Source: a virus (lineage: Duplodnaviria > Heunggongvirae > Uroviricota > Caudoviricetes). From it: a DNA stretch of 42,980 nucleotides. The stretch lies in the IMG/VR virus record IMGVR_UViG_2778261642_000006; one strand, given 5' to 3'. Each line of letters starts with the position of its first letter. Position 1 is the stretch's first letter. Position numbers and translations under genes: made by a program. Shown here one piece after another: positions 1 to 40,874 of this stretch. The notes below the pieces were generated by a model. The model saw nothing but the letters and a program-made list of their open reading frames with translations, made no database searches and was not told the DNA's origin.

Positions 1-1284
1 CTACTTCTTCGCCTCTGCAACCACTTTGCTACCCACGCCGCGGTTATTGTATTCCCACATGCGGTTGTAGTTAGTGTCATTCAGATTGCGCTGTACTTCG
101 TCGTTATCATCAACGCTGCCGGTGTTACCCGCAAATGGACGATTAGAGATCACCGCATCAGCCCACGGTTTGGCTGTGTTAAAACCTTCGTTGATGGCGC
201 TATCACGGATCACTACCTGACCGTTGGTATTGGCATCAACATCCAGCGAGCGGCCCAGTTGCGCCACGCCATCACCGGAAGCATTGAAACGGCTGTTTAC
301 GGCGAGGAAACCGTAGTAAATGTTGGACAGCGTAGCCGGTGCAAACACATACGCTTCTTGCTGGGTACGGGAGTTCACCACGCGGAATTCGGTGTTATCG
401 AACACCACTGCGCCGCGACCAGAAACGATATCCACATCCCCTTCAATATAGCTGTTGGTCACCAGCGTACGTGGCTGACGATTCGTTTCCAGACGGTTCT
501 GCACACCGCTGTTGGTGACAAAGAAGGTGTTCTGACGACCGAGAATGTTGACGTTATTGATCTGCACTTTGTCGCCATCAGTACGCAGTGCCACCGCCGG
601 ATGGTTACCCGCATCTACGCTATCGCCCAGCGTGTTTTCGATGGTCAGGTTTTGCAGTTGCAGGCCATTGTTTTGTGACCAGAAGACCGCAGAGCAGAGA
701 ACACCGATACTGTCGCTGCGTTTACTCTGGCAGCTATCGTACATATACCACGCCGGTTTACCTGGCATATATTTGCCGCGCGGGTTGACGTCGTGACGCC
801 AGTCGGCAGGGCTCATGCCACCATCAAGGGAAAGCCCAATCTTCACATCAATCGGTTTTTCACCCGTACCGTACAGAGTAATTCCACCCGGAGCGGCAGG
901 GACATACACCGTTCCCTGATACTCACCAGGCATCACGGCAATATACTGGCGCTTGTTGGTACGCTTGATAATTGCCGCATCTACCGCCGCCTGAATCGTG
1001 GTATGCGTTACACCTTGAGTACCCGCCGGGCCGACAACAAAGTCAGGTTGCGCAGGCAGGGTAATCGGGGAAGGATTCCACGCTGCCGCACCTGGTGTCA
1101 GGGATGCAAAATAGTGTTGAGCATCGAAATTCTGCGCTTCTTTTGCCGACAGAATCGGGCGCGAAGAGGTACCAGGCGCGGTTTGATCAGAAGGACGTTG
1201 ATCGGGCGGTGTTGAGCTACAGGCGGTCAGCGTCACGCCAAAAGCCAATGCCAGCGCCAGACGGGAAACTGAAAATGTGTTCAC
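1..1284 (-). CDS. ybhC: Host lipoprotein YbhC-like (pectinesterase / acyl-CoA thioesterase family)
   Basis: 427-aa ORF with lipoprotein signal (LTACSS); recalled match to E. coli YbhC, the gene flanking attB-lambda; lies just outside the attL core. Confidence 0.85.
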   Translation of the reverse strand: MNTFSVSRLALALAFGVTLTACSSTPPDQRPSDQTAPGTSSRPILSAKEAQNFDAQHYFASLTPGAAAWNPSPITLPAQPDFVVGPAGTQGVTHTTIQAAVDAAIIKRTNKRQYIAVMPGEYQGTVYVPAAPGGITLYGTGEKPIDVKIGLSLDGGMSPADWRHDVNPRGKYMPGKPAWYMYDSCQSKRSDSIGVLCSAVFWSQNNGLQLQNLTIENTLGDSVDAGNHPAVALRTDGDKVQINNVNILGRQNTFFVTNSGVQNRLETNRQPRTLVTNSYIEGDVDIVSGRGAVVFDNTEFRVVNSRTQQEAYVFAPATLSNIYYGFLAVNSRFNASGDGVAQLGRSLDVDANTNGQVVIRDSAINEGFNTAKPWADAVISNRPFAGNTGSVDDNDEVQRNLNDTNYNRMWEYNNRGVGSKVVAEAKK

Positions 1285-8415: not shown

Positions 8416-8997
<582 letters not shown>

Positions 8998-9085
8998 GTG
9001 ATATAGATTTACCTTTAATTTTCTGGCGTCCTCTGCATGTTATGCCGCGTTCGCCAGGCTTGCGGTAGTAAATTCGGTTATTTAT

Positions 9086-9112: not shown

Positions 9113-9556
9113 TTATTTCTTTGGATTTAGCTTTTCCATGTTCTCTGCGATCGTACCTATTCTTGACCTTATTGTTGGAACATCAATTCCTCTCTGTATG
9201 TCTACATTTAAAGACATAAGCTCTCTGCTCCATCCTGCGATCGCATCGTGAAATTGTCTTGCCCTGCTTGCTTGTCTACGTCTGCTGCTTTCAAGCTCTG
9301 TAAGCATTTGCTTTGCTTCGATCTGAGACTTGCCTTGCCCAACTCCCAATGCATCGATTGCACATTGCTTCATCTCTGCTTTTATCAAAGGGTGAAGATT
9401 TTCAGCGCCAATAAAAATTACCTCGTCTATGCTTTTAAAAAGCAGAAGGCAATCAGTAACAACTTTGGTTCTTTTATCATCACACCTTACCTCTACCGAA
9501 GGTACGCCGCCATATTGCTTAACTCTCATTGCCGTGTAAACTGTAGCACTCTTCAA
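9113..9556 (-). CDS. Hypothetical protein at the N/Nun position (not N-like)
   Basis: 147-aa ORF starting at TTG with AGGAGG RBS 5 nt upstream (or ATG 9 codons in); first gene after the pL leader; no arginine-rich N-terminal motif. Confidence 0.55.
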   Translation of the reverse strand: MKSATVYTAMRVKQYGGVPSVEVRCDDKRTKVVTDCLLLFKSIDEVIFIGAENLHPLIKAEMKQCAIDALGVGQGKSQIEAKQMLTELESSRRRQASRARQFHDAIAGWSRELMSLNVDIQRGIDVPTIRSRIGTIAENMEKLNPKK

Positions 9557-9817: not shown

Positions 9818-10525
9818 TTATCCGAATCGCTTGTAATCGATTGACTGCCTAATGAGGACTTTGGCTAGAATGTGAAGTTGCTCTTCTTCACCTTCTTCTA
9901 TGTACCATCGATCATAAGCGGCATTGTCAGAGATGACGGCAAGCCTGTTCTTTTGCATTTGCAGGCGCTTAACGTGCATTGTTTTCCCGTATACAAACAC
10001 ATAAATGCCATCGCCATCAAAACAGGTTATGGATACATCAACAAAGATCTCATCTCCCGGATTGATGGTTCCCTCCATGCTGTCACCGCGAACCGTGATG
10101 ACTTTTACGCTTTCCTGTGGCCTTCCATTAAATAAAATTCTTGCCTGCTCGGTCGTATATTCAATTGCTCTTATCTTTTCTATAAATTCATTGGAAACCA
10201 TGGTTCCTGGCCCGGCGCTCGCCTGAACATCCAATACATCAACACGATAATAATCATTTGATCTTGATAGATGATTTACCGTGATACCGTCATCATCAGC
10301 ATAGCCATGCAGATATGCAGCAGTAGTTCCCAGCACCGAAGCCAGAGATTCCATCTTGTCTTTTCTTGGTATTGACTCCCCGTTGAACCATTTACTAATG
10401 GCTTTTGGTGTGACCTTAAGCCTGACAGCTAAATCAGCCTGCCTACCATGCAAAGGTAATCCCGCTTTATCACAGGCCAGCGCAAGCCTCTGCGAGAAAG
10501 TTTCACGCTCTTTCTGTTGAACCAT
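9818..10525 (-). CDS. cI: CI-type repressor (HTH_XRE + S24/LexA-like peptidase domain)
   Basis: HTH region (…QADLAVRLKVTPKAISKWFNGESIPRKDKMESLASVLG…) and C-terminal S24 motifs (GDSMEGT…HVKRL); divergent from cro across operators; start ambiguous (in-frame ATGs near 10525, 10570, 10582). Confidence 0.8.
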   Translation of the reverse strand: MVQQKERETFSQRLALACDKAGLPLHGRQADLAVRLKVTPKAISKWFNGESIPRKDKMESLASVLGTTAAYLHGYADDDGITVNHLSRSNDYYRVDVLDVQASAGPGTMVSNEFIEKIRAIEYTTEQARILFNGRPQESVKVITVRGDSMEGTINPGDEIFVDVSITCFDGDGIYVFVYGKTMHVKRLQMQKNRLAVISDNAAYDRWYIEEGEEEQLHILAKVLIRQSIDYKRFG

Positions 10526-10589
10526 AAGTTCAACTATATTAGGTATTGACTGTACTATCAGTTCCGTCATAATATGAACCATAAGTTCA
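10517..10589. promoter_or_regulatory. OR operator region: two near-perfect 17-bp palindromes plus a degenerate middle site; pR/pRM
   Basis: TTGAACCATAAGTTCAA (~10517..10533) and ATGAACCATAAGTTCAC (~10575..10589) with TTGACTGTACTATCAGTTC between; lies between cI and cro. Confidence 0.6.
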
Positions 10590-10604
10590 CCACAGGAGAG
10601 AAGC

Positions 10605-10835
10605 ATGAACGAAGTTACGTTTGGAGAAGTTATCAAATCCGTTCGAGTTTCTGTTGTGGCTGATGTTTGTGGACTTACGCCAAAAGCCATCTATAAGTGG
10701 CTTGAGCGTGGTTCTCTGCCGCGTACCGAGTTCACTGGTGAAACCGAATATGCGGATAAGATCGCCAAGGCATCAGGCGGCAAGTACTCAGCAGCACAGA
10801 TTCGCCGTATCGGTAAACAGCAGTTTGTTATGTAA
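10605..10835 (+). CDS. cro: Cro-like repressor
   Basis: 76 aa; HTH (…VADVCGLTPKAIYKWLERGSL…); GGAGAG RBS; divergent to cI directly downstream of operators. Confidence 0.8.
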   Translation: MNEVTFGEVIKSVRVSVVADVCGLTPKAIYKWLERGSLPRTEFTGETEYADKIAKASGGKYSAAQIRRIGKQQFVM

Positions 10836-10956: not shown

Positions 10957-11256
10957 ATGACACAAGCAAGCTACAGCAAGCCAACACAGCGAGAAATTGA
11001 TCGCGCAGAAACAGATTTACTCATCAACCTGTCAACGCTTACCCAGCGCGGTCTGGCAAATATGATTGGCTGTCATGAATCGAAGATAAGCAGAACGGAC
11101 TGGAGATTTATTGCTTCGGTCTTGTGTGCTTTCGGAATGGCATCAGACATCAGTCCGATTAGCAGGGCTTTTAAGTATGCGCTTGATGGACTCACCAATA
11201 AAAAACGCCCGGTGTGCAAGACCGAGCGTTCTGATCAAATACAAATGGAATTTTAA
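10957..11256 (+). CDS. cII: CII transcriptional activator
   Basis: 99 aa; C-terminus …LTNKKRPVCKTERSDQIQMEF matches recalled lambda CII …LTNKKRPAATERSEQIQMEF. Confidence 0.9.
   Translation: MTQASYSKPTQREIDRAETDLLINLSTLTQRGLANMIGCHESKISRTDWRFIASVLCAFGMASDISPISRAFKYALDGLTNKKRPVCKTERSDQIQMEF
11198..11229 (-). terminator. OOP-like antisense RNA terminator (to) within the cII 3' end
   Basis: Minus strand reads CGCTCGG-tcttgcaca-CCGGGCG followed by TTTTTTATT, the same position as lambda to/oop. Confidence 0.5.
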
Positions 11257-11553: not shown

Positions 11554-12501
11554 ATGAGCAATACAGCAAAAATCTACGATTTCAGCGCCGCACACGAGCG
11601 CAGGAGCAACAGGATGGAGAACCAGAAAACTGGTTACATTCCGTTGTACCGGAGCATTCTGAAACAGTCATGGGCGAAAGATGTTTATCTTCGCACCCTG
11701 TGGGAAAACCTTCTCCTGAATGCCGCCAGAAAGCCATACAAAGCGAATTTCAAAGGTCATGAATGGCATCTGCAACCCGGTCAACTGGTTGTGACAGCAG
11801 CTGATTTAGGTCTTCAGTTATGCGACAGGCATGGCAAGCCGGCAAGCCGTGATCAGGTTGAGCGGATGCTTCAGGTTTTTGTGAAAGAGGGGATGATCTC
11901 CATTGATGGAGAGAAGCAAAAAGGTCGTGTGATCACCATCACAAATTACCATGAATATGCTCAAAAAATGGACGATTCACCCGCACATGAAGCCGCACAA
12001 ACAACCGCACATGATGCCGCACATGATGAAGCCAGTAATGGCGCGGCATTCAGCGTACATGCCGCACATGAAAGCGCACATGAAGCCGCACAAACAACCG
12101 CACATCATGAACAAGAAGGTATTAACAAGAATATAAATAATACCCCCCTACCCCCCAATGGGGGAGGCGATGGGCAGGTTAAACCTGAACGTCGCAAGGC
12201 AGAACGCATCGACTACGAATCCTTCCTGAACGCCTACAACACCGAAGTCGGTGACAGACTTCCACACGCTGTTGCGGTCAACGAGAAACGCAAACGCCGC
12301 CTGAAGAAAATCATCCCGCAACTGAAAACGCCAAACGTGGACGGTTTCAGAGCGTATGTCAGGGCGTTTGTGCATCAGGCCAAGCCGTTTTACTTCGGAG
12401 ACAACGACACGGGCTGGGTGGCAGATTTTGATTACCTGCTGAGGGAGGATTCGTTAACGGGAGTTCGGGAAGGGAAGTTTGCAGACAGGGGGATTGCATG
12501 A
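11554..12501 (+). CDS. Replication initiator (lambda O / P22 gene 18 analogue)
   Basis: 315 aa; position after cII; contains the iteron array and its repeated [10 protein letters not shown] peptide; stop overlaps helicase start (ATGA). Confidence 0.75.
11975..12165. repeat. Putative origin of replication: CCGCACATGA-type iterons, AT-rich tract, C6/G5 inverted repeat
   Basis: At least 8 copies of (C)CGCACATGA(A/T)G within ~130 bp, then aagaatataaataata and cccccctaccccccaatggggga. Confidence 0.6.
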
Positions 12502-13874
12502 AACAGGATATCGAAGCGAGCGTTATCGGTGGCCTGCTGATTGGTGGATTAACACCAATTGCCAGTGACGTTCTGGCAACGCTTGAGCCGGAAGCGTTTT
12601 CAATTCCGCTCTACCGGAAAGCCTTCGAGGTTATCCGCAAGCAGGCGCGAAACAGAAATTTAATCGACGCGCTGATGGTTGCCGAGGCGTGCGGAGAGGA
12701 ACATTTCACGTCAATCCTGATGACCAGCAAAAACTGCCCGAGTGCCGCAAACCTGAAGGGATATGCCGGAATGGTCGCGGATAATTATCACCGCCGTCTG
12801 GTGCTGGAAATCATGGATGAAATGCGTGAACCAATTCAGAGCGGAACCATCGACGCATCGAGTCAGGCGATGGATGAACTTGTAAAGCGTCTTTCAGCCA
12901 TCAGAAAGCCCCGTGACGAGGTTAAACCTGTACGGTTAGGGGAAATCATCACTGACTACACTGACACGCTTGACAGGCGTCTGAGGAACGGAAAAGAGTC
13001 AGATACCCTGAAGACCGGAATCGAAGAACTTGACGCCATCACCGGAGGGATGAACGCAGAAGACCTGGTGATAATCGCCGCTCGTCCTGGTATGGGGAAA
13101 ACCGAGCTGGCGCTGAAGATTGCCGAAGGCGTTGCAAGCCGTGTTATTCCTGGTTCTGACGTCCGGCGCGGAGTATTGATTTTCTCGATGGAAATGAGCG
13201 CATTGCAGATTGCAGAGCGAAGCATCGCCAACGCCGGGAGGATGTCGGTTAGCGTGCTGCGAAATCCTGCATCGATGGATGACGAAGGCTGGGCGCGCGT
13301 TGCTAACGGCATGAGTCAGCTTGCAGATTTGGATGTATGGGTGGTCGATGCCTCGCGGTTATCGGTCGAAGAAATACGCTCAATCGCAGAACGGCACAAA
13401 CAGGAAAATCCAAACCTCTCACTCATCATGGCGGATTATCTTGGCCTGATTGAGAAGCCGAAAGCAGACCGCAACGACCTCGCAATTGCTCACATCTCCG
13501 GAAGCCTGAAGGCGATGGCGAAAGACCTGAAAACGCCTGTTATCTCCCTGAGTCAGCTTTCGCGCGATGTTGAGAAGCGACCAAACAAACGCCCGACAAA
13601 CGCAGATTTGCGTGATTCAGGAAGCATTGAACAGGACGCAGACTCAATCATCATGCTCTATCGGGAAGCAGTATATGACGAGAACAGTAGCGCCGCGCCA
13701 TTTGCTGAAATCATTGTGACAAAAAACCGTTTTGGCTCACTTGGTACGGTTTACCAGCGGTTCTGCAACGGACACTTTGTTGCATGTGACCAGGATGAAG
13801 CCAGACAGATTTGCACAGCATCAAATGCACCTGCTGCGCGTGGCAGACGATATGCACAAGGGGCTGACGTATGA
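12498..13874 (+). CDS. Replicative DNA helicase, DnaB-like
   Basis: 458 aa; Walker A ([12 protein letters not shown]) and DnaB-family motifs (…[17 protein letters not shown]…[13 protein letters not shown]…). Confidence 0.9.
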
Positions 13875-13900
13875 CCATCTACATCACTGAGCTAATAACA

Positions 13901-13930
13901 GGCCTGCTGGTAATCGCAGGCCTTTTTATT
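13901..13930 (+). terminator. Intrinsic terminator after the helicase (tR2-like)
   Basis: GGCCTGC-tggtaatc-GCAGGCC followed by TTTTTATTT. Confidence 0.7.
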
Positions 13931-13946
13931 TGGGGGAGAGTAAATC

Positions 13947-14153
13947 GTGGTTGAGTTGATTTTTTCTGCATTGAGGATTCTCGGTGCTATGTGGATGGTG
14001 GCGACGTTCATTGTGGTTGCCAGCAGTTTTGTCCGGCTGGTAGGCGAAGGTAAAGACCTGGTTGGTGTGCTTTTCGGTAGCATTTTCCTGTGGGTGATTA
14101 TCGGTGTTGCGCCTGTAGCTGTAGCAAAAATGGCGTGGCGTTTTGTGAGTTGA
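13947..14153 (+). CDS. Small two-helix membrane protein
   Basis: 68 aa, GTG start after GGGGGAGAG RBS; two hydrophobic segments. Confidence 0.4.
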   Translation: MVELIFSALRILGAMWMVATFIVVASSFVRLVGEGKDLVGVLFGSIFLWVIIGVAPVAVAKMAWRFVS

Positions 14154-14170
14154 ACTGAGGGTAAGTATCG

Positions 14171-14437
14171 ATGGACGAATCAAGAAAGCAGTTTGAAGAA
14201 TGGTTTAAAAACAAATATCACGTTTCAAGTGACGTGATGAAGATTATGCACATCAAGGTCGAGATTGCATGGGAGGCATGGCAGGCATCGCGAGCAGCTA
14301 TTGAAATTGAGCTGCAAAAGCCAAAGAAAGGCCCACTTCCCGGTGATTATCACATTGGCTATGACTCAGGTGCAGAATCACAATACGAAAGCGATGTAGA
14401 GGCCATCCGCGCTGCTGGGGTTAAAGTGAAGGAGTGA
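14171..14437 (+). CDS. Hypothetical protein
   Basis: 88-aa ORF in the nin region. Confidence 0.5.
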   Translation: MDESRKQFEEWFKNKYHVSSDVMKIMHIKVEIAWEAWQASRAAIEIELQKPKKGPLPGDYHIGYDSGAESQYESDVEAIRAAGVKVKE

Positions 14438-14439
14438 GT

Positions 14440-14646
14440 ATGACAAATCAGCAGCAAATAGAGTTCATCCTTGAGCAGATCCGAAAAATGCGAGAAAAGA
14501 ACCAGCCAGACATGATGGAAATATGGAGACGCCAGCAGGAAGAATACCGCAAGCATATTTTTGGTGAGAGAAAACAGGATGACTGGAGCCTATATGGCTA
14601 TGGCACCAGGACAAATAAAAACGGATATAGCCTTTACACATATTGA
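14440..14646 (+). CDS. Hypothetical protein
   Basis: 68 aa from MTNQQQIEFILEQ…; AGGAG RBS. Confidence 0.45.
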   Translation: MTNQQQIEFILEQIRKMREKNQPDMMEIWRRQQEEYRKHIFGERKQDDWSLYGYGTRTNKNGYSLYTY

Positions 14647-14654
14647 GGAATTCC

Positions 14655-15065
14655 ATGAAACAGACAATTTTCCTCAGGAGTAAGCAACAACAGCAAGCCG
14701 CAATCAACGCCATCCTCGCAACACCACTCGATAAAGACAAGCCAGTTACCATCCGCATTACTGACTACAAGCGCAACCTTGACCAGAACGCAAAATTTCA
14801 CGCGATGCTGGCGGATATCGCAAGTCAGGTTCAATGGTGCGGCAAATGGTTAAAACCAGAACAATGGAAGGTTTTGTTGATAAGCGGTCATGCAGTGGCT
14901 ACAAAGCAGGAAGCTGATGTTTTGCCCGGGCTTGAAGGCGAATACGTCAACATTCGCGAAAGCAGCGCGCAGATGAGTGTGAAGCGTATGGCAAGTCTGA
15001 TTGAGTACACGACAGCCTGGGCTATTGGTCAGGGTGTCAGATTTACCGACAGGAGGTATGAATGA
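14655..15065 (+). CDS. ninB: NinB recombination protein
   Basis: 136 aa from [11 protein letters not shown]…; …[27 protein letters not shown]… matches recalled lambda NinB pattern. Confidence 0.8.
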
Positions 15066-16224: not shown

Positions 16225-16354
16225 GCGGGCTTTAACGTGCGCTAACTGCGGTCAGAAGCTGCATGTGCTGGAAGTTCACGTGTGCTCCGATTGCTGCGCA
16301 GAACTGATGAGCGATCCGAATAGCTCGATGCACGAGGAAGAAGACGATGGCTAA
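16178..16354 (+). CDS. ninF: NinF
   Basis: 58 aa [66 protein letters not shown]; matches recalled lambda NinF. Confidence 0.75.
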   Translation: MLIPSQSIQYQKESVERALTCANCGQKLHVLEVHVCSDCCAELMSDPNSSMHEEEDDG

Positions 16355-16913
16355 ACCAGCGCGAAGACGATGTAACCGTAAAAGAGAAGATTTAACTGTT
16401 AAAAGGATATTTGAGTTACTAAGTTTCGATAAATCTACCGGGGTATTTAGATGGAAAGTTCCCACTCAGGGAAGGATAGCATTAAATAGTGTTGCTGGAA
16501 CTTTTGATTCCAACGGTTATTCAATGATCATGATAGATGGGCGTAGATATAAAACTCACATCTTAGTTTTTTACATAACTCATAATCGCTGGCCTGCTGG
16601 TCAAATTGACCACGTTAATGGAATTAGGACCGACAATAGGCCAGAAAATTTAAGAGAATGCCTGCCAATAGAAAATTCAAGAAATATAAGGATCCGAAAG
16701 AACAGCAAATCAGGTTGCAGAGGAGTTACTTGGCACAAACGACAGAAAAAATGGAATGTTAGGCTAGGTTTCCATGGCAAGAGTAAACACTTCGGATGCT
16801 TTGATGATCTGGAGTTAGCGGTACTAGTTGCTGAAGAAGCCCGAGATAAGTATTACGGTGATTTTTCCGGCAACGAAAGGAGCACTTATGCGAATCTATC
16901 GAAGGAAATGTAA
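16347..16913 (+). CDS. HNH endonuclease with AP2-like DNA-binding domain, apparently inserted at the ninG 5' end
   Basis: Begins MAKPARRRC (recalled NinG N-terminus) then HNH motifs (…[18 protein letters not shown]…) and AP2-like segment (…[31 protein letters not shown]…). Confidence 0.75.
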
Positions 16914-17693: not shown

Positions 17694-18342
17694 TGGCAGC
17701 AAATACCGAAATGTTTGGGTAGTTGGCGATCTGCACGGATGCTACACGAACCTGATGAAAAAACTGGAGACGATAGGATTCGACACCAAAAAAGACCTGC
17801 TTATCTCGGTGGGCGATTTGGTTGATCGCGGTACAGAGAACGTCGAATGTCTGGAATTAATCACATTCCCCTGGTTCCGAGCTGTACGTGGAAACCATGA
17901 GCAAATGATGATTGATGGCTTATCAGAGCGTGGAAACGTCAATCACTGGCTGTTTAATGGCGGTGGCTGGTTCTTTAATCTCGATTACGACAAAGAAATT
18001 CTGGCTAAAGCTCTTGCCCATAAAGCAGATGAACTTCCGTTAATCATCGAACTGGTGAGCGAAGGTAAAAAATATGTCATCTGCCACGCCGATTATCCCT
18101 GTGACGAATACGAGTTTGGAAAGCCAGTTGATCATCAGCAGGTAATCTGGAACCGCGAACGAATCAGCAACTCACAAGACGGGATCGTGAAAGAAATCAA
18201 AGGAGCGGACACGTTCATCTTTGGTCATACGCCAGCAGTGAAACCACTCAAGTTTGCCAACCAGATGTATATCGATACCGGCGCAGTGTTCTGCGGAAAC
18301 CTCACATTGATTCAGGTACAGGGAGAAGGCGCATGGGCATAA
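17671..18342 (+). CDS. ninI: Ser/Thr protein phosphatase (NinI, lambda PPase-like)
   Basis: From [28 protein letters not shown]…; metallophosphatase motifs GDLHG, GDLVDRG, GNHE. Confidence 0.9.
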
Positions 18343-18851
18343 GAGAACTAAACCTCACCAAAGAGCAGCACGAGTGGCTGAATGGCTGGCTTGAACTGTG
18401 GGGAGCATGGGTTTATTCAGGTCGTCTGGAAAAGCGCATGAGCAGCGTAATAGCTAAGTTCATGGAGAGCGTAGAGCCGGGAAGAGTTATGACAAGGCCA
18501 ATGTGTAATGATGATGATGGAATGTTGATTTCTCAGGTCGTCGATTCCGTCATGTACATTGACAAGAAAGCCTTTGGCATCCTCCTCAGCTACTACGCTC
18601 ATGGTTCATCTAAGCGAGCAATTGCATCCTACTATCACGAGACTGCAAAGCCACGCAAGATGTGTGGGCGTGGTGGCGAGGGATGGAGAAAACCTTCACT
18701 GGCAACCTGTAGAAACGAAATTGACGATATCCTGAAAGCGTCATTATTTGTTTTGTACCAACCAATGAAAAATGCTTTCAAAATGCGTAAACGTGTTGAG
18801 AAAGTTAAGCATGTTGCTGTTAAAAGTCTTGACATGCAATTAGCCATTTAG
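18333..18851 (+). CDS. Q: Late-gene antiterminator Q (non-lambda Q family)
   Basis: 172 aa; directly upstream of pR'-like promoter and tR'; composition resembles the Q family of phage 21/82 type; mainly positional. Confidence 0.6.
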
Positions 18852-19612: not shown

Positions 19613-19687
19613 GGGTCAGTCGTATAAAGGTCATTACGGAAGGCTGTTAACCTTCTTATCGTGGTTCGAGTCCACGCTGTCCCGCCA
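19613..19687 (+). tRNA. tRNA-like gene, anticodon GUU (Asn) by manual folding
   Basis: Acceptor GGGTCAG/CTGTCCC (1 mismatch), weak D-stem, anticodon arm GAAGG-CTGTTAA-CCTTC, T-arm CGTGG-TTCGAGT-CCACG, discriminator G, CCA. Confidence 0.5.
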
Positions 19688-19692
19688 AATAT

Positions 19693-19768
19693 GCTGGTTT
19701 AGCTCCAATGGTAGAGCAGTCGCCTTGTAAGCGAATGGGTAGCGGTTCAAGTCCGTTAACCAGCACCA
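19693..19768 (+). tRNA. tRNA, anticodon UGU (Thr) by manual folding
   Basis: 76 nt; acceptor GCTGGTT/AACCAGC, D-arm GCTC…GAGC, anticodon loop CTTGTAA, T-loop TTCAAGT, discriminator A, CCA. Confidence 0.6.
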
Positions 19769-40550: not shown

Positions 40551-40586
40551 TTGTATCAATTTGCTAAATTAAAAAAGGATAAAAAT

Positions 40587-40874
40587 ATGGATACAACACC
40601 AATAACACATGCAGTATGCGCGGTTATTGCGCAGATACTGGTTGGCCTTTCTACCGGAAACTGGGCTTACGGTGCGATAGCCGGTTGTACGTTCTTCATT
40701 GCGCGTGAACACACCCAGGCAGAATATCGCTGGATAGAAAAGTTTGGGAAAGGGAAACGCATCAACATGCCGTGGTGGGGAGGTTTTGATCCACGCGTGT
40801 GGGATGTGGGAAGTCTGTTGGATTTTTCTTTCCCAATTATCGGATGCTTATTGGTATGGATTCTTGCATCGTAG
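40587..40874 (+). CDS. Hypothetical small membrane protein downstream of tailspike
   Basis: 95 aa from MDTTPITHAVCAVIAQILVGLSTGNWAYGAIAGCTFFIA…; AAGGA RBS; two hydrophobic segments. Confidence 0.45.
   Translation: MDTTPITHAVCAVIAQILVGLSTGNWAYGAIAGCTFFIAREHTQAEYRWIEKFGKGKRINMPWWGGFDPRVWDVGSLLDFSFPIIGCLLVWILAS

Follow-up and report, generated by a model that had tools for sequence, protein, structure and literature searches.

The stretch of DNA analyzed here (the window) comprises 42,980 nt of the IMG/VR virus record IMGVR_UViG_2778261642_000006, and its positions 13871-14153 probably form the junction that lambdoid prophages typically have between their replication genes and nin region. The junction is read as the intrinsic terminator tR2, the 27-codon micro-open reading frame (micro-ORF) ninA, translated as a relay between its neighbors, and the gene of a 68-aa membrane protein. 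We assign this reading a probability of roughly 0.8. The original prediction, which was drawn from the letters alone, had described a 27-codon ORF sharing an ATGA with the helicase stop, a terminator hairpin spanned by that ORF, and a GTG-initiated ORF of 68 aa; all of these elements are present and correctly positioned. Both ninA and tR2 are already named and annotated in lambda-like phages and are ordinary for such prophages, and the annotation of the region can simply read ninA / tR2 / PHROG 1165.

The identity of the locus is defined by direct comparison with annotated phages. Window positions 13871-13940 and lambda positions 40568-40637 agree at 69 of 70 bases, a segment that in lambda runs from the ATGA at the ren stop through tR2 to GGGGGAGAG. 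The lambda hairpin, loop, U-tract, and trailing GGGGGAGAG are reproduced in the window without change. In HK620, the same 84-nt ORF carries the ninA label ("similar to Bacteriophage P22 NinA"), with the regulatory feature "terminator tR2" within it. The equivalent ORF is annotated as "NinA protein" in HK630, and the Lahn3 record labels the element "tR2, early terminator". The NinA of P22 (YP_063725, 26 aa) lies between gene 12 and ninB. In agreement with these labels, the peptide encoded by the window matches PHROG 5907 with E = 1.3e-18, residues 1-26 aligning to a profile of 27 positions. The genome paper of phage L counts ninA among those nin genes of lambda and P22 that are nonessential and, citing Kroger and Hobom 1982, describes ATGA stop-start overlaps as typical for the nin region (PMC8022706).

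The 70-bp block at 13871-13940 is found in 421 phage records, mostly at 95-100% identity and between unrelated flanks. A 601-bp query over the locus (13850-14450) matched about 2,049 of 5,426 complete Escherichia coli genomes. In three E. coli records annotated by the Prokaryotic Genome Annotation Pipeline (PGAP), the 68-aa gene is a "hypothetical protein" and the 73-nt gap holding ninA and tR2 carries no annotation. Searches of Pfam, NCBIfam, and PADLOC returned no family for ninA or for the 68-aa ORF, and the only assignments are PHROGs of unknown function. Short ORFs are frequent by chance: the surrounding 6 kb is overlapped by 107 with a length of 20 aa or more. The 27-codon length is thus unremarkable on its own, and conservation is what exceeds chance.

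The terminator that the micro-ORF had been predicted to span is confirmed. According to the terminator scan, 8 pairs, 6 of them G-C, form the stem and close a loop of 8 nt, and TTTTATTT comes next. Folded alone, the hairpin reaches -15.7 kcal/mol (z = -3.0 versus shuffled sequences). It stands downstream of cII, O, and DnaB and upstream of NinB, NinG, NinI, and Q. From the 69/70 identity with lambda and the identical gene order, we infer that tR2 has a gating function here. By the general behavior of intrinsic terminators, the terminated RNA should end within the U-tract, upstream of the ninA stop codon. Directly behind the U-tract, GGGGGAGAG forms the conserved 3' end of the block. Its pairing energy with the anti-Shine-Dalgarno (anti-SD) sequence, -8.9 kcal/mol, ranks in the top 1.1% of the window background. 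This motif is kept ahead of at least 8 different downstream genes and serves as the SD of the 68-aa gene here and of ninB in lambda.

Several features point to translation of ninA. Its ATG shares an ATGA (13871-13874) with the TGA stop of the helicase gene (13872-13874), which bears out the coupling proposed in the original prediction. An SD-like AAGGGG lies in the 3' end of the helicase gene, 7 nt ahead of this ATG, and its anti-SD duplex energy of -8.1 kcal/mol falls in the top 1.7% of the window background. Comparable signals recur in other phages where the upstream gene is not homologous. Including that of the window, seven nonhomologous gene ends were compared, namely those of lambda ren, of two helicase types, of a toprim protein, and of three further genes, and each has an SD 6-8 nt before the ATG. 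Their anti-SD energies rank in the top 0.2-7.6% of the window background, with a Fisher combined p = 9e-8. In all seven, the stop codon overlaps or abuts the ninA ATG, as ATGA, TGATG, or TAAATG.

The downstream end of ninA shows an equivalent arrangement. In the window, the ninA TGA and the GTG of the 68-aa gene overlap by 8 nt (GTGGTTGA). About 8 different genes follow ninA among 200 copies, and in most of these copies the ninA stop overlaps the start codon behind it or directly abuts it. The forms observed are GTGGNTGA in the 68-aa family, ATGA with ninB, GTGA with a phiTE_015-like gene, and TAAATG. In this tally, the automated scoring mis-called the ninB start in the lambda-type class (about 60 copies), which was scored by eye as ATGA. 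In a lambda reporter study, the NinA initiation site was active and was judged "not weak" (PMC4824070).

Variation among natural copies adds a further line of evidence. The sample of 325 copies, taken from IMG/VR, phage records, and E. coli genomes, yielded 56 haplotypes of the 5' half of the block. Copies were gathered with anchors in different parts of the block, together with an anchor-free set retrieved via the 68-aa protein. Codons 2-10 are not part of the hairpin, and of the 16 different substitution types observed in them, 10 leave the amino acid unchanged when read in the ATG frame, against an expected synonymous fraction of 0.26-0.30 (p = 0.002-0.007). The other two forward frames display no synonymous excess. 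None of the 11 variable sites falls on a second codon position (p = 0.0024), and all six replacements in codons 2-10 are conservative (T/A, I/V, L/I, and I/M). The P22 allele differs from the window at 5 of the first 27 nt; four of these differences are synonymous and one is I9V.

The hairpin itself occurs in alternative alleles that share the same ninA 5' end. A second allele, of the HK97/HK446 type, has the stem GGGCTA...TAGCCC with T6 and was found at 92 loci. A third and rarer type, GGCCAC...GTGGCC, is represented by locus L262. The original prediction had pointed to frame conservation among relatives as a test of the micro-ORF, and the ninA frame is indeed conserved there, remaining open through all three hairpin alleles. 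Within the lambda-type stem, C33T and A48G each preserve pairing as a G-U wobble and are synonymous. Between the HK97 type and the L262 type, a compensatory change from a T-A to a C-G pair is synonymous on both arms. Taken as comparative sequence evidence, the SD in seven contexts, the codon-periodic variation, and the stop-start overlaps support the view that ninA is translated and constrained.

In the proposed mechanism, tR2 would act as a gate at which most transcription initiated at pR ends once the replication genes have been passed. Expression of the nin genes and Q would begin only when the antitermination system of the phage has modified RNA polymerase. Such gating of the nin genes and Q by tR2 is established for lambda, which in vivo gets past tR2 only if N is present or nin is deleted. 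Ribosomes leaving the helicase gene would reinitiate at the overlapping ninA ATG, aided by its own SD. On read-through transcripts, they would then cross the hairpin and terminate atop the start codon of the next gene. The ninA relay would thereby tie the nin genes translationally to the replication genes, as a "chain of interlinked genes". This relay role is one that we infer; for ninA translation itself, the comparative evidence presented here stands beside the reporter evidence in lambda. Terminated RNAs end before the ninA stop codon, and ninA translation on them would therefore be non-stop. Such translation should trigger rescue by transfer-messenger RNA (tmRNA) and mRNA decay.

The lambda reporter measurements offer a quantitative view of these steps. 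Li et al. measured tR2 in vivo with its natural lambda upstream sequence and found that termination efficiency was about 0.8 when 18 nt separated the upstream stop from the terminator and about 0.9 at spacings of more than 30 nt (PMC4824070). The distance from upstream stop to hairpin is 25 nt here, as in lambda. Construct W48 included the NinA initiation site, and non-stop translation of the terminated RNA halved expression of the upstream reporter, on which basis the site was judged not to be weak (PMC4824070). Silencing the NinA SD or ATG restored upstream expression and shifted tR2 efficiency by only about 10% (PMC4824070). Translation of ninA would then reduce termination slightly, and an attenuator switch would not be expected.

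Certain observations weigh against this interpretation. At the position of the N gene, the window encodes a 147-aa protein of unknown family, behind which lies a remnant of the C-terminus of lambda N. Some natural ninA alleles are disrupted by a 1-nt deletion just past ATGAC (5 loci), by a T inserted in the T-tract or a G inserted behind it, or by premature stops. At about 27 IMG/VR loci, a 203-aa HNH homing-endonuclease gene splits ninA after approximately codon 11. In the codon test, the reverse-strand frame in register with the third positions of ninA is synonymous-rich as well (8/16, p = 0.0065). Since the excess is shared, this test alone cannot single out the plus frame, which is distinguished by the SD, the ATG, and the stop-start geometry. 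An antisense ORF at 13879-13971, whose frame shares the excess, was rejected as the source of the codon signal, since its start is not conserved beyond this downstream context. The p-values are in any case approximate, because few substitution types are available and recombination links the copies. Residues encoded by the hairpin differ between alleles (LLVIAG versus AIYTVA), and part of the hydrophobicity of NinA is consequently a by-product of the terminator.

The disrupted alleles align with published deletions, and ninA is dispensable. In lambda, the deletion nin5 extends from ren through ninH and takes ninA with it (PMC3349717), and a P22 lysogen with a ninA-ninH deletion has been constructed (PMC11016777). 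At the endonuclease insertions, a hydrophobic hybrid ORF of 34 aa is left, and the TAA stop of the endonuclease gene abuts the tR2 hairpin. The highly conserved ninA/tR2 block resembles a homing target. Within the window, an HNH endonuclease with an AP2-like domain (16347-16913, plus strand) belongs to the same broad type as the enzyme whose gene interrupts ninA in other phages.

The alternative that survives best, doubtful though we consider it, is that NinA is a functional small single-pass membrane peptide, for example, a regulator, an exclusion factor, or a weak toxin. Its production would be gated by antitermination, because its stop codon is present only on read-through transcripts. The constraint on codons 2-10 described above is consistent with purifying selection on a peptide, which is composed of a hydrophobic core from I3 to W21 followed by basic residues. 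In addition, the 8-nt loop, which the terminator does not need to be conserved, varies by only three substitution types, and the endonuclease-split allele again encodes a hydrophobic peptide, of 34 aa. The constraint on codons 2-10 is what keeps a peptide function alive as a minority possibility. It is opposed by the half of the peptide encoded by the hairpin, which is wholly different between hairpin alleles, and by the C-terminal tail, which changes with the downstream gene. Frameshifted, truncated, and split alleles still occur naturally, phages can lose the nin region along with ninA, and T-rich terminator sequence yields hydrophobic codons automatically. The toxin role suggested in the original prediction has found little in its favor: PADLOC, Pfam, and NCBIfam returned no toxin family, ninA is nonessential, and a scan of both strands over 13400-14700 gave no promoter-like sites that could serve an antisense partner. 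Rfam detected no family in the ninA region and, elsewhere in the window, only two tRNAs. The lambda reporter that expressed the ORF was reported without mention of toxicity (PMC4824070).

A related and somewhat less likely proposal is that ninA is dual-coded, the 70-bp sequence having been selected at once as a terminator, as a ribosome relay, and as the gene of a functional peptide of about 26 aa inserted in the membrane. If so, the full-length peptide would arise only from antiterminated transcripts, and terminated ones would constitute a built-in non-stop message that recruits tmRNA. The lambda-immP22 hybrid phage depends on trans-translation, a dependence that is unexplained (PMC2862035). 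As pure speculation, a dual-coded ninA could bear on it.

Regulation of tR2 by ribosomes, also raised in the original prediction, is improbable. According to this explanation, the rate of ninA translation or its coupling to the helicase would set tR2 formation and thereby tune entry into the nin genes and Q. The ORF does pass through the hairpin, a closely trailing ribosome can suppress tR2, and the 25-nt distance from upstream stop to hairpin is near the interference distance of about 27 nt in the published model (PMC4824070). Yet in the same study the termination efficiency was already about 0.8 with 18-nt spacing and the natural upstream sequence, and silencing the lambda ninA start changed termination by only about 10% (PMC4824070). 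In the 101-nt fold (z = 0.05), the terminator hairpin was the only stable structure and no alternative anti-terminator pairing was found, and different phages have nonhomologous sequences upstream. The need of lambda for N or a nin deletion at tR2 implies that translation does not defeat the terminator. Together with the small reporter effect, the lack of a competing structure, and the unrelated upstream sequences, this need argues against a classical attenuator.

Least probable of all is that the micro-ORF is a by-product, neither translated nor selected, of a block conserved as a terminator and recombination linker: short ORFs are common by chance, gene callers usually skip this one, and the block is a mosaic joint, 95-100% identical between unrelated flanks, so that much of its conservation could be recent recombinational spread, but this does not account for an SD in seven non-homologous upstream contexts, stop-start overlaps maintained at both ends, codon periodicity in the variation, a frame maintained through three different hairpins, or an initiation site that is experimentally active in lambda (PMC4824070).

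The third component of the junction, the 68-aa gene, is the first nin-region gene in this prophage. The two-helix membrane protein that had been predicted from it proved to be both real and conserved. Its product matches PHROG 1165 over residues 1-68 of 68 (E = 7.5e-37) and is strongly hydrophobic, with a grand average of hydropathy of 1.56. AlphaFold2 models a helical hairpin (H2-33 and H38-67) with a predicted local distance difference test score of 91.6. Alignments, hydropathy, and this model together predict two transmembrane helices separated by a short G-x-G-K-D loop. Each of the 39 distinct alleles is intact and retains the GTG start, and variation is biased towards synonymous changes (23/57, p = 0.004). 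Homologs occur at 54% and 46% identity in HK620 and in Salmonella P22-like phages, with further ones at 33-38%; divergent members keep a length of 63-68 aa, the G-x-G-K-D loop, and an AKxAWRF C-terminus. When loci were retrieved via the protein alone, the gene stood directly after a tR2 hairpin in all 79 that could be assessed.

Searches for a function of this protein gave a uniform picture. One search found 199 protein clusters from Escherichia and Salmonella, all "hypothetical", and most of the 120 listed were 68 aa long. An exhaustive protein search recovered 16 clusters among 1.8 billion representatives and no functional lead; with only 16 representative clusters, the family is narrow. A search for related loci with the 68-aa alignment returned only copies of 91-100% identity. 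A sequence-profile search of the PDB gave no match for the family, and Foldseek comparison of the AlphaFold2 model with viral structures gave only generic helical hairpins (E >= 0.8). The gene context of a distant relative (P0128) offered no functional clue. The gene is real, with a narrow range, and its product is, by the structural model, an accessory two-pass inner-membrane protein. It would be made only after antitermination. Our best guess, held with low confidence and by analogy with what is thought of other nonessential nin genes, is that the protein may modulate a host membrane function. It is widespread in E. coli and Salmonella prophages.

The features discussed above, together with the main genes of the early region, are collected in Table 1.

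Table 1. Coordinates of the ninA/tR2 junction, of neighboring genes in the window, and of variant ninA loci in other records
Feature	Coordinates	Strand	Remarks
CI-like repressor	9818-10690	-	
cro	10605-10835		
cII	10957-11256		
O-type initiator	11554-12501		
DnaB-like helicase	12498-13874	+	Last replication gene of the early-right operon; Pfam DnaB_C E = 9.5e-78, DnaB N-terminal domain E = 7e-13
SD-like AAGGGG	13858-13863	+	In helicase 3' end, 7 nt ahead of ninA ATG
ninA micro-ORF	13871-13954	+	27 codons; PHROG 5907
tR2 hairpin	13900-13923	+	AGGCCTGC, loop TGGTAATC, GCAGGCCT; terminator scan
tR2 U-tract	13924-13931	+	TTTTATTT; terminator scan
SD for following gene	13932-13940	+	GGGGGAGAG; conserved 3' end of block
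68-aa two-helix inner-membrane protein gene (predicted)	13947-14153	+	GTG start; PHROG 1165; first nin-region gene here
NinB	14643-15065		
Q-type antiterminator	18333-18851		
Endonuclease-split ninA	L205 1760-2453		Also L014, L091, L120, L170, L176, and others
ninA with another hairpin, HK446	L257 7782-7880		
ninA with another hairpin, L262 type	L262 ~992-1090		

Beyond NinB, the gene order continues with a DNA methylase, the HNH endonuclease, NinG/Rap, the NinI phosphatase, and Q. Between the 68-aa gene and NinB, the series of overlapping genes is extended on the plus strand (14171-14646) by two small nin-region genes, which share a GTGA stop-start overlap at 14434-14437 and encode an 88-aa protein of PHROG 343 (phiTE_015 family according to PGAP) and a 70-aa protein of PHROG 18758. 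Some other phages have a related phiTE_015-like gene directly behind tR2. Downstream of Q, the two tRNA genes lie at 19613-19765 on the plus strand, as in many Shiga toxin (Stx)-type lambdoid phages.

At the N position, the minus strand carries a 147-aa ORF of PHROG 13686 (9113-9556), which two stops end ahead of an N remnant. This lambda-type remnant (8993-9082, minus strand) retains the C-terminal 30 residues, is 87% identical to the N of HK446, and is in frame behind the two stops. A search for an N antiterminator in the prophage found only this C-terminal remnant of lambda N. The arrangement of the 147-aa ORF and the remnant is a mosaic joint.

A scan of GTDB genomes with the hairpin as anchor returned mostly lambda DNA contamination and unrelated terminators with a shared stem. 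It added little divergence, because true copies came only from Escherichia species and Shimwellia. The exact lambda ren-tR2-ninB sequence appeared in contigs assigned to unrelated taxa, among them Bradyrhizobium, Psychrobacter, Pseudoxanthomonas, Paenibacillus, Nocardioides, and Chromatium. The contigs bearing it are mostly short, and several have low coverage (L211, L217, L219, L221, L222, L227, L229, L234, L238, L240, L244, L245, and L249). Lambda sequence in these unrelated assemblies is almost certainly contamination with lambda DNA.

The junction can be compared with several known systems. Type I toxins such as Ibs, ShoB, TisB, and Hok resemble NinA in being 19-50 aa long with a single hydrophobic helix. 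Unlike them, ninA has neither an antisense partner nor a promoter of its own in the scanned interval, matches no toxin family, forms part of a translationally coupled, polycistronic phage operon, and is not known to be toxic. Leader-peptide attenuators such as trp and pyrBI likewise place a short ORF by an intrinsic terminator, where ribosome position could hinder the hairpin. In contrast to these, ninA comes without alternative hairpins or regulatory codons and spans the terminator, whereas their ORFs end before it, and the measured effect of translation on tR2 is small (PMC4824070).

Closer relatives are the micro-ORFs of the HK97/HK446 gp56 type, which share the ninA 5' end and the same coupling to the helicase stop and also run through a hairpin and T-tract. 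Their ORF is 26-32 aa long, and the middle of the peptide (AIYTVA) differs because the hairpin sequence differs. The ninA genes of lambda, P22, and HK620 (HK620p26) share with the window the MTIYITEL start, the ATGA-type upstream coupling, the reading through tR2, and the stop that overlaps the next start. They differ in the C-terminal tail, which is set by the downstream gene and reads VNRG here, GKS in lambda, and GKT in P22. Lambda tR2, between ren and ninB at about 40.6 kb, provides the closest counterpart, both in the block itself and in its place, which follows the replication genes and precedes the nin genes and Q. The two differ in their neighbors: upstream, the window has a DnaB-type helicase gene, as in P22 and HK620, whereas lambda has ren; downstream, it has the 68-aa PHROG 1165 gene, whereas lambda has ninB. 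Set against these systems, the present analysis contributes comparative support for the translation of ninA and for constraint on its amino acid sequence, with a terminator encoded in the same stretch. As such, ninA would represent a clean natural case in which coding, RNA-structure, and translational-coupling constraints act on one short sequence.

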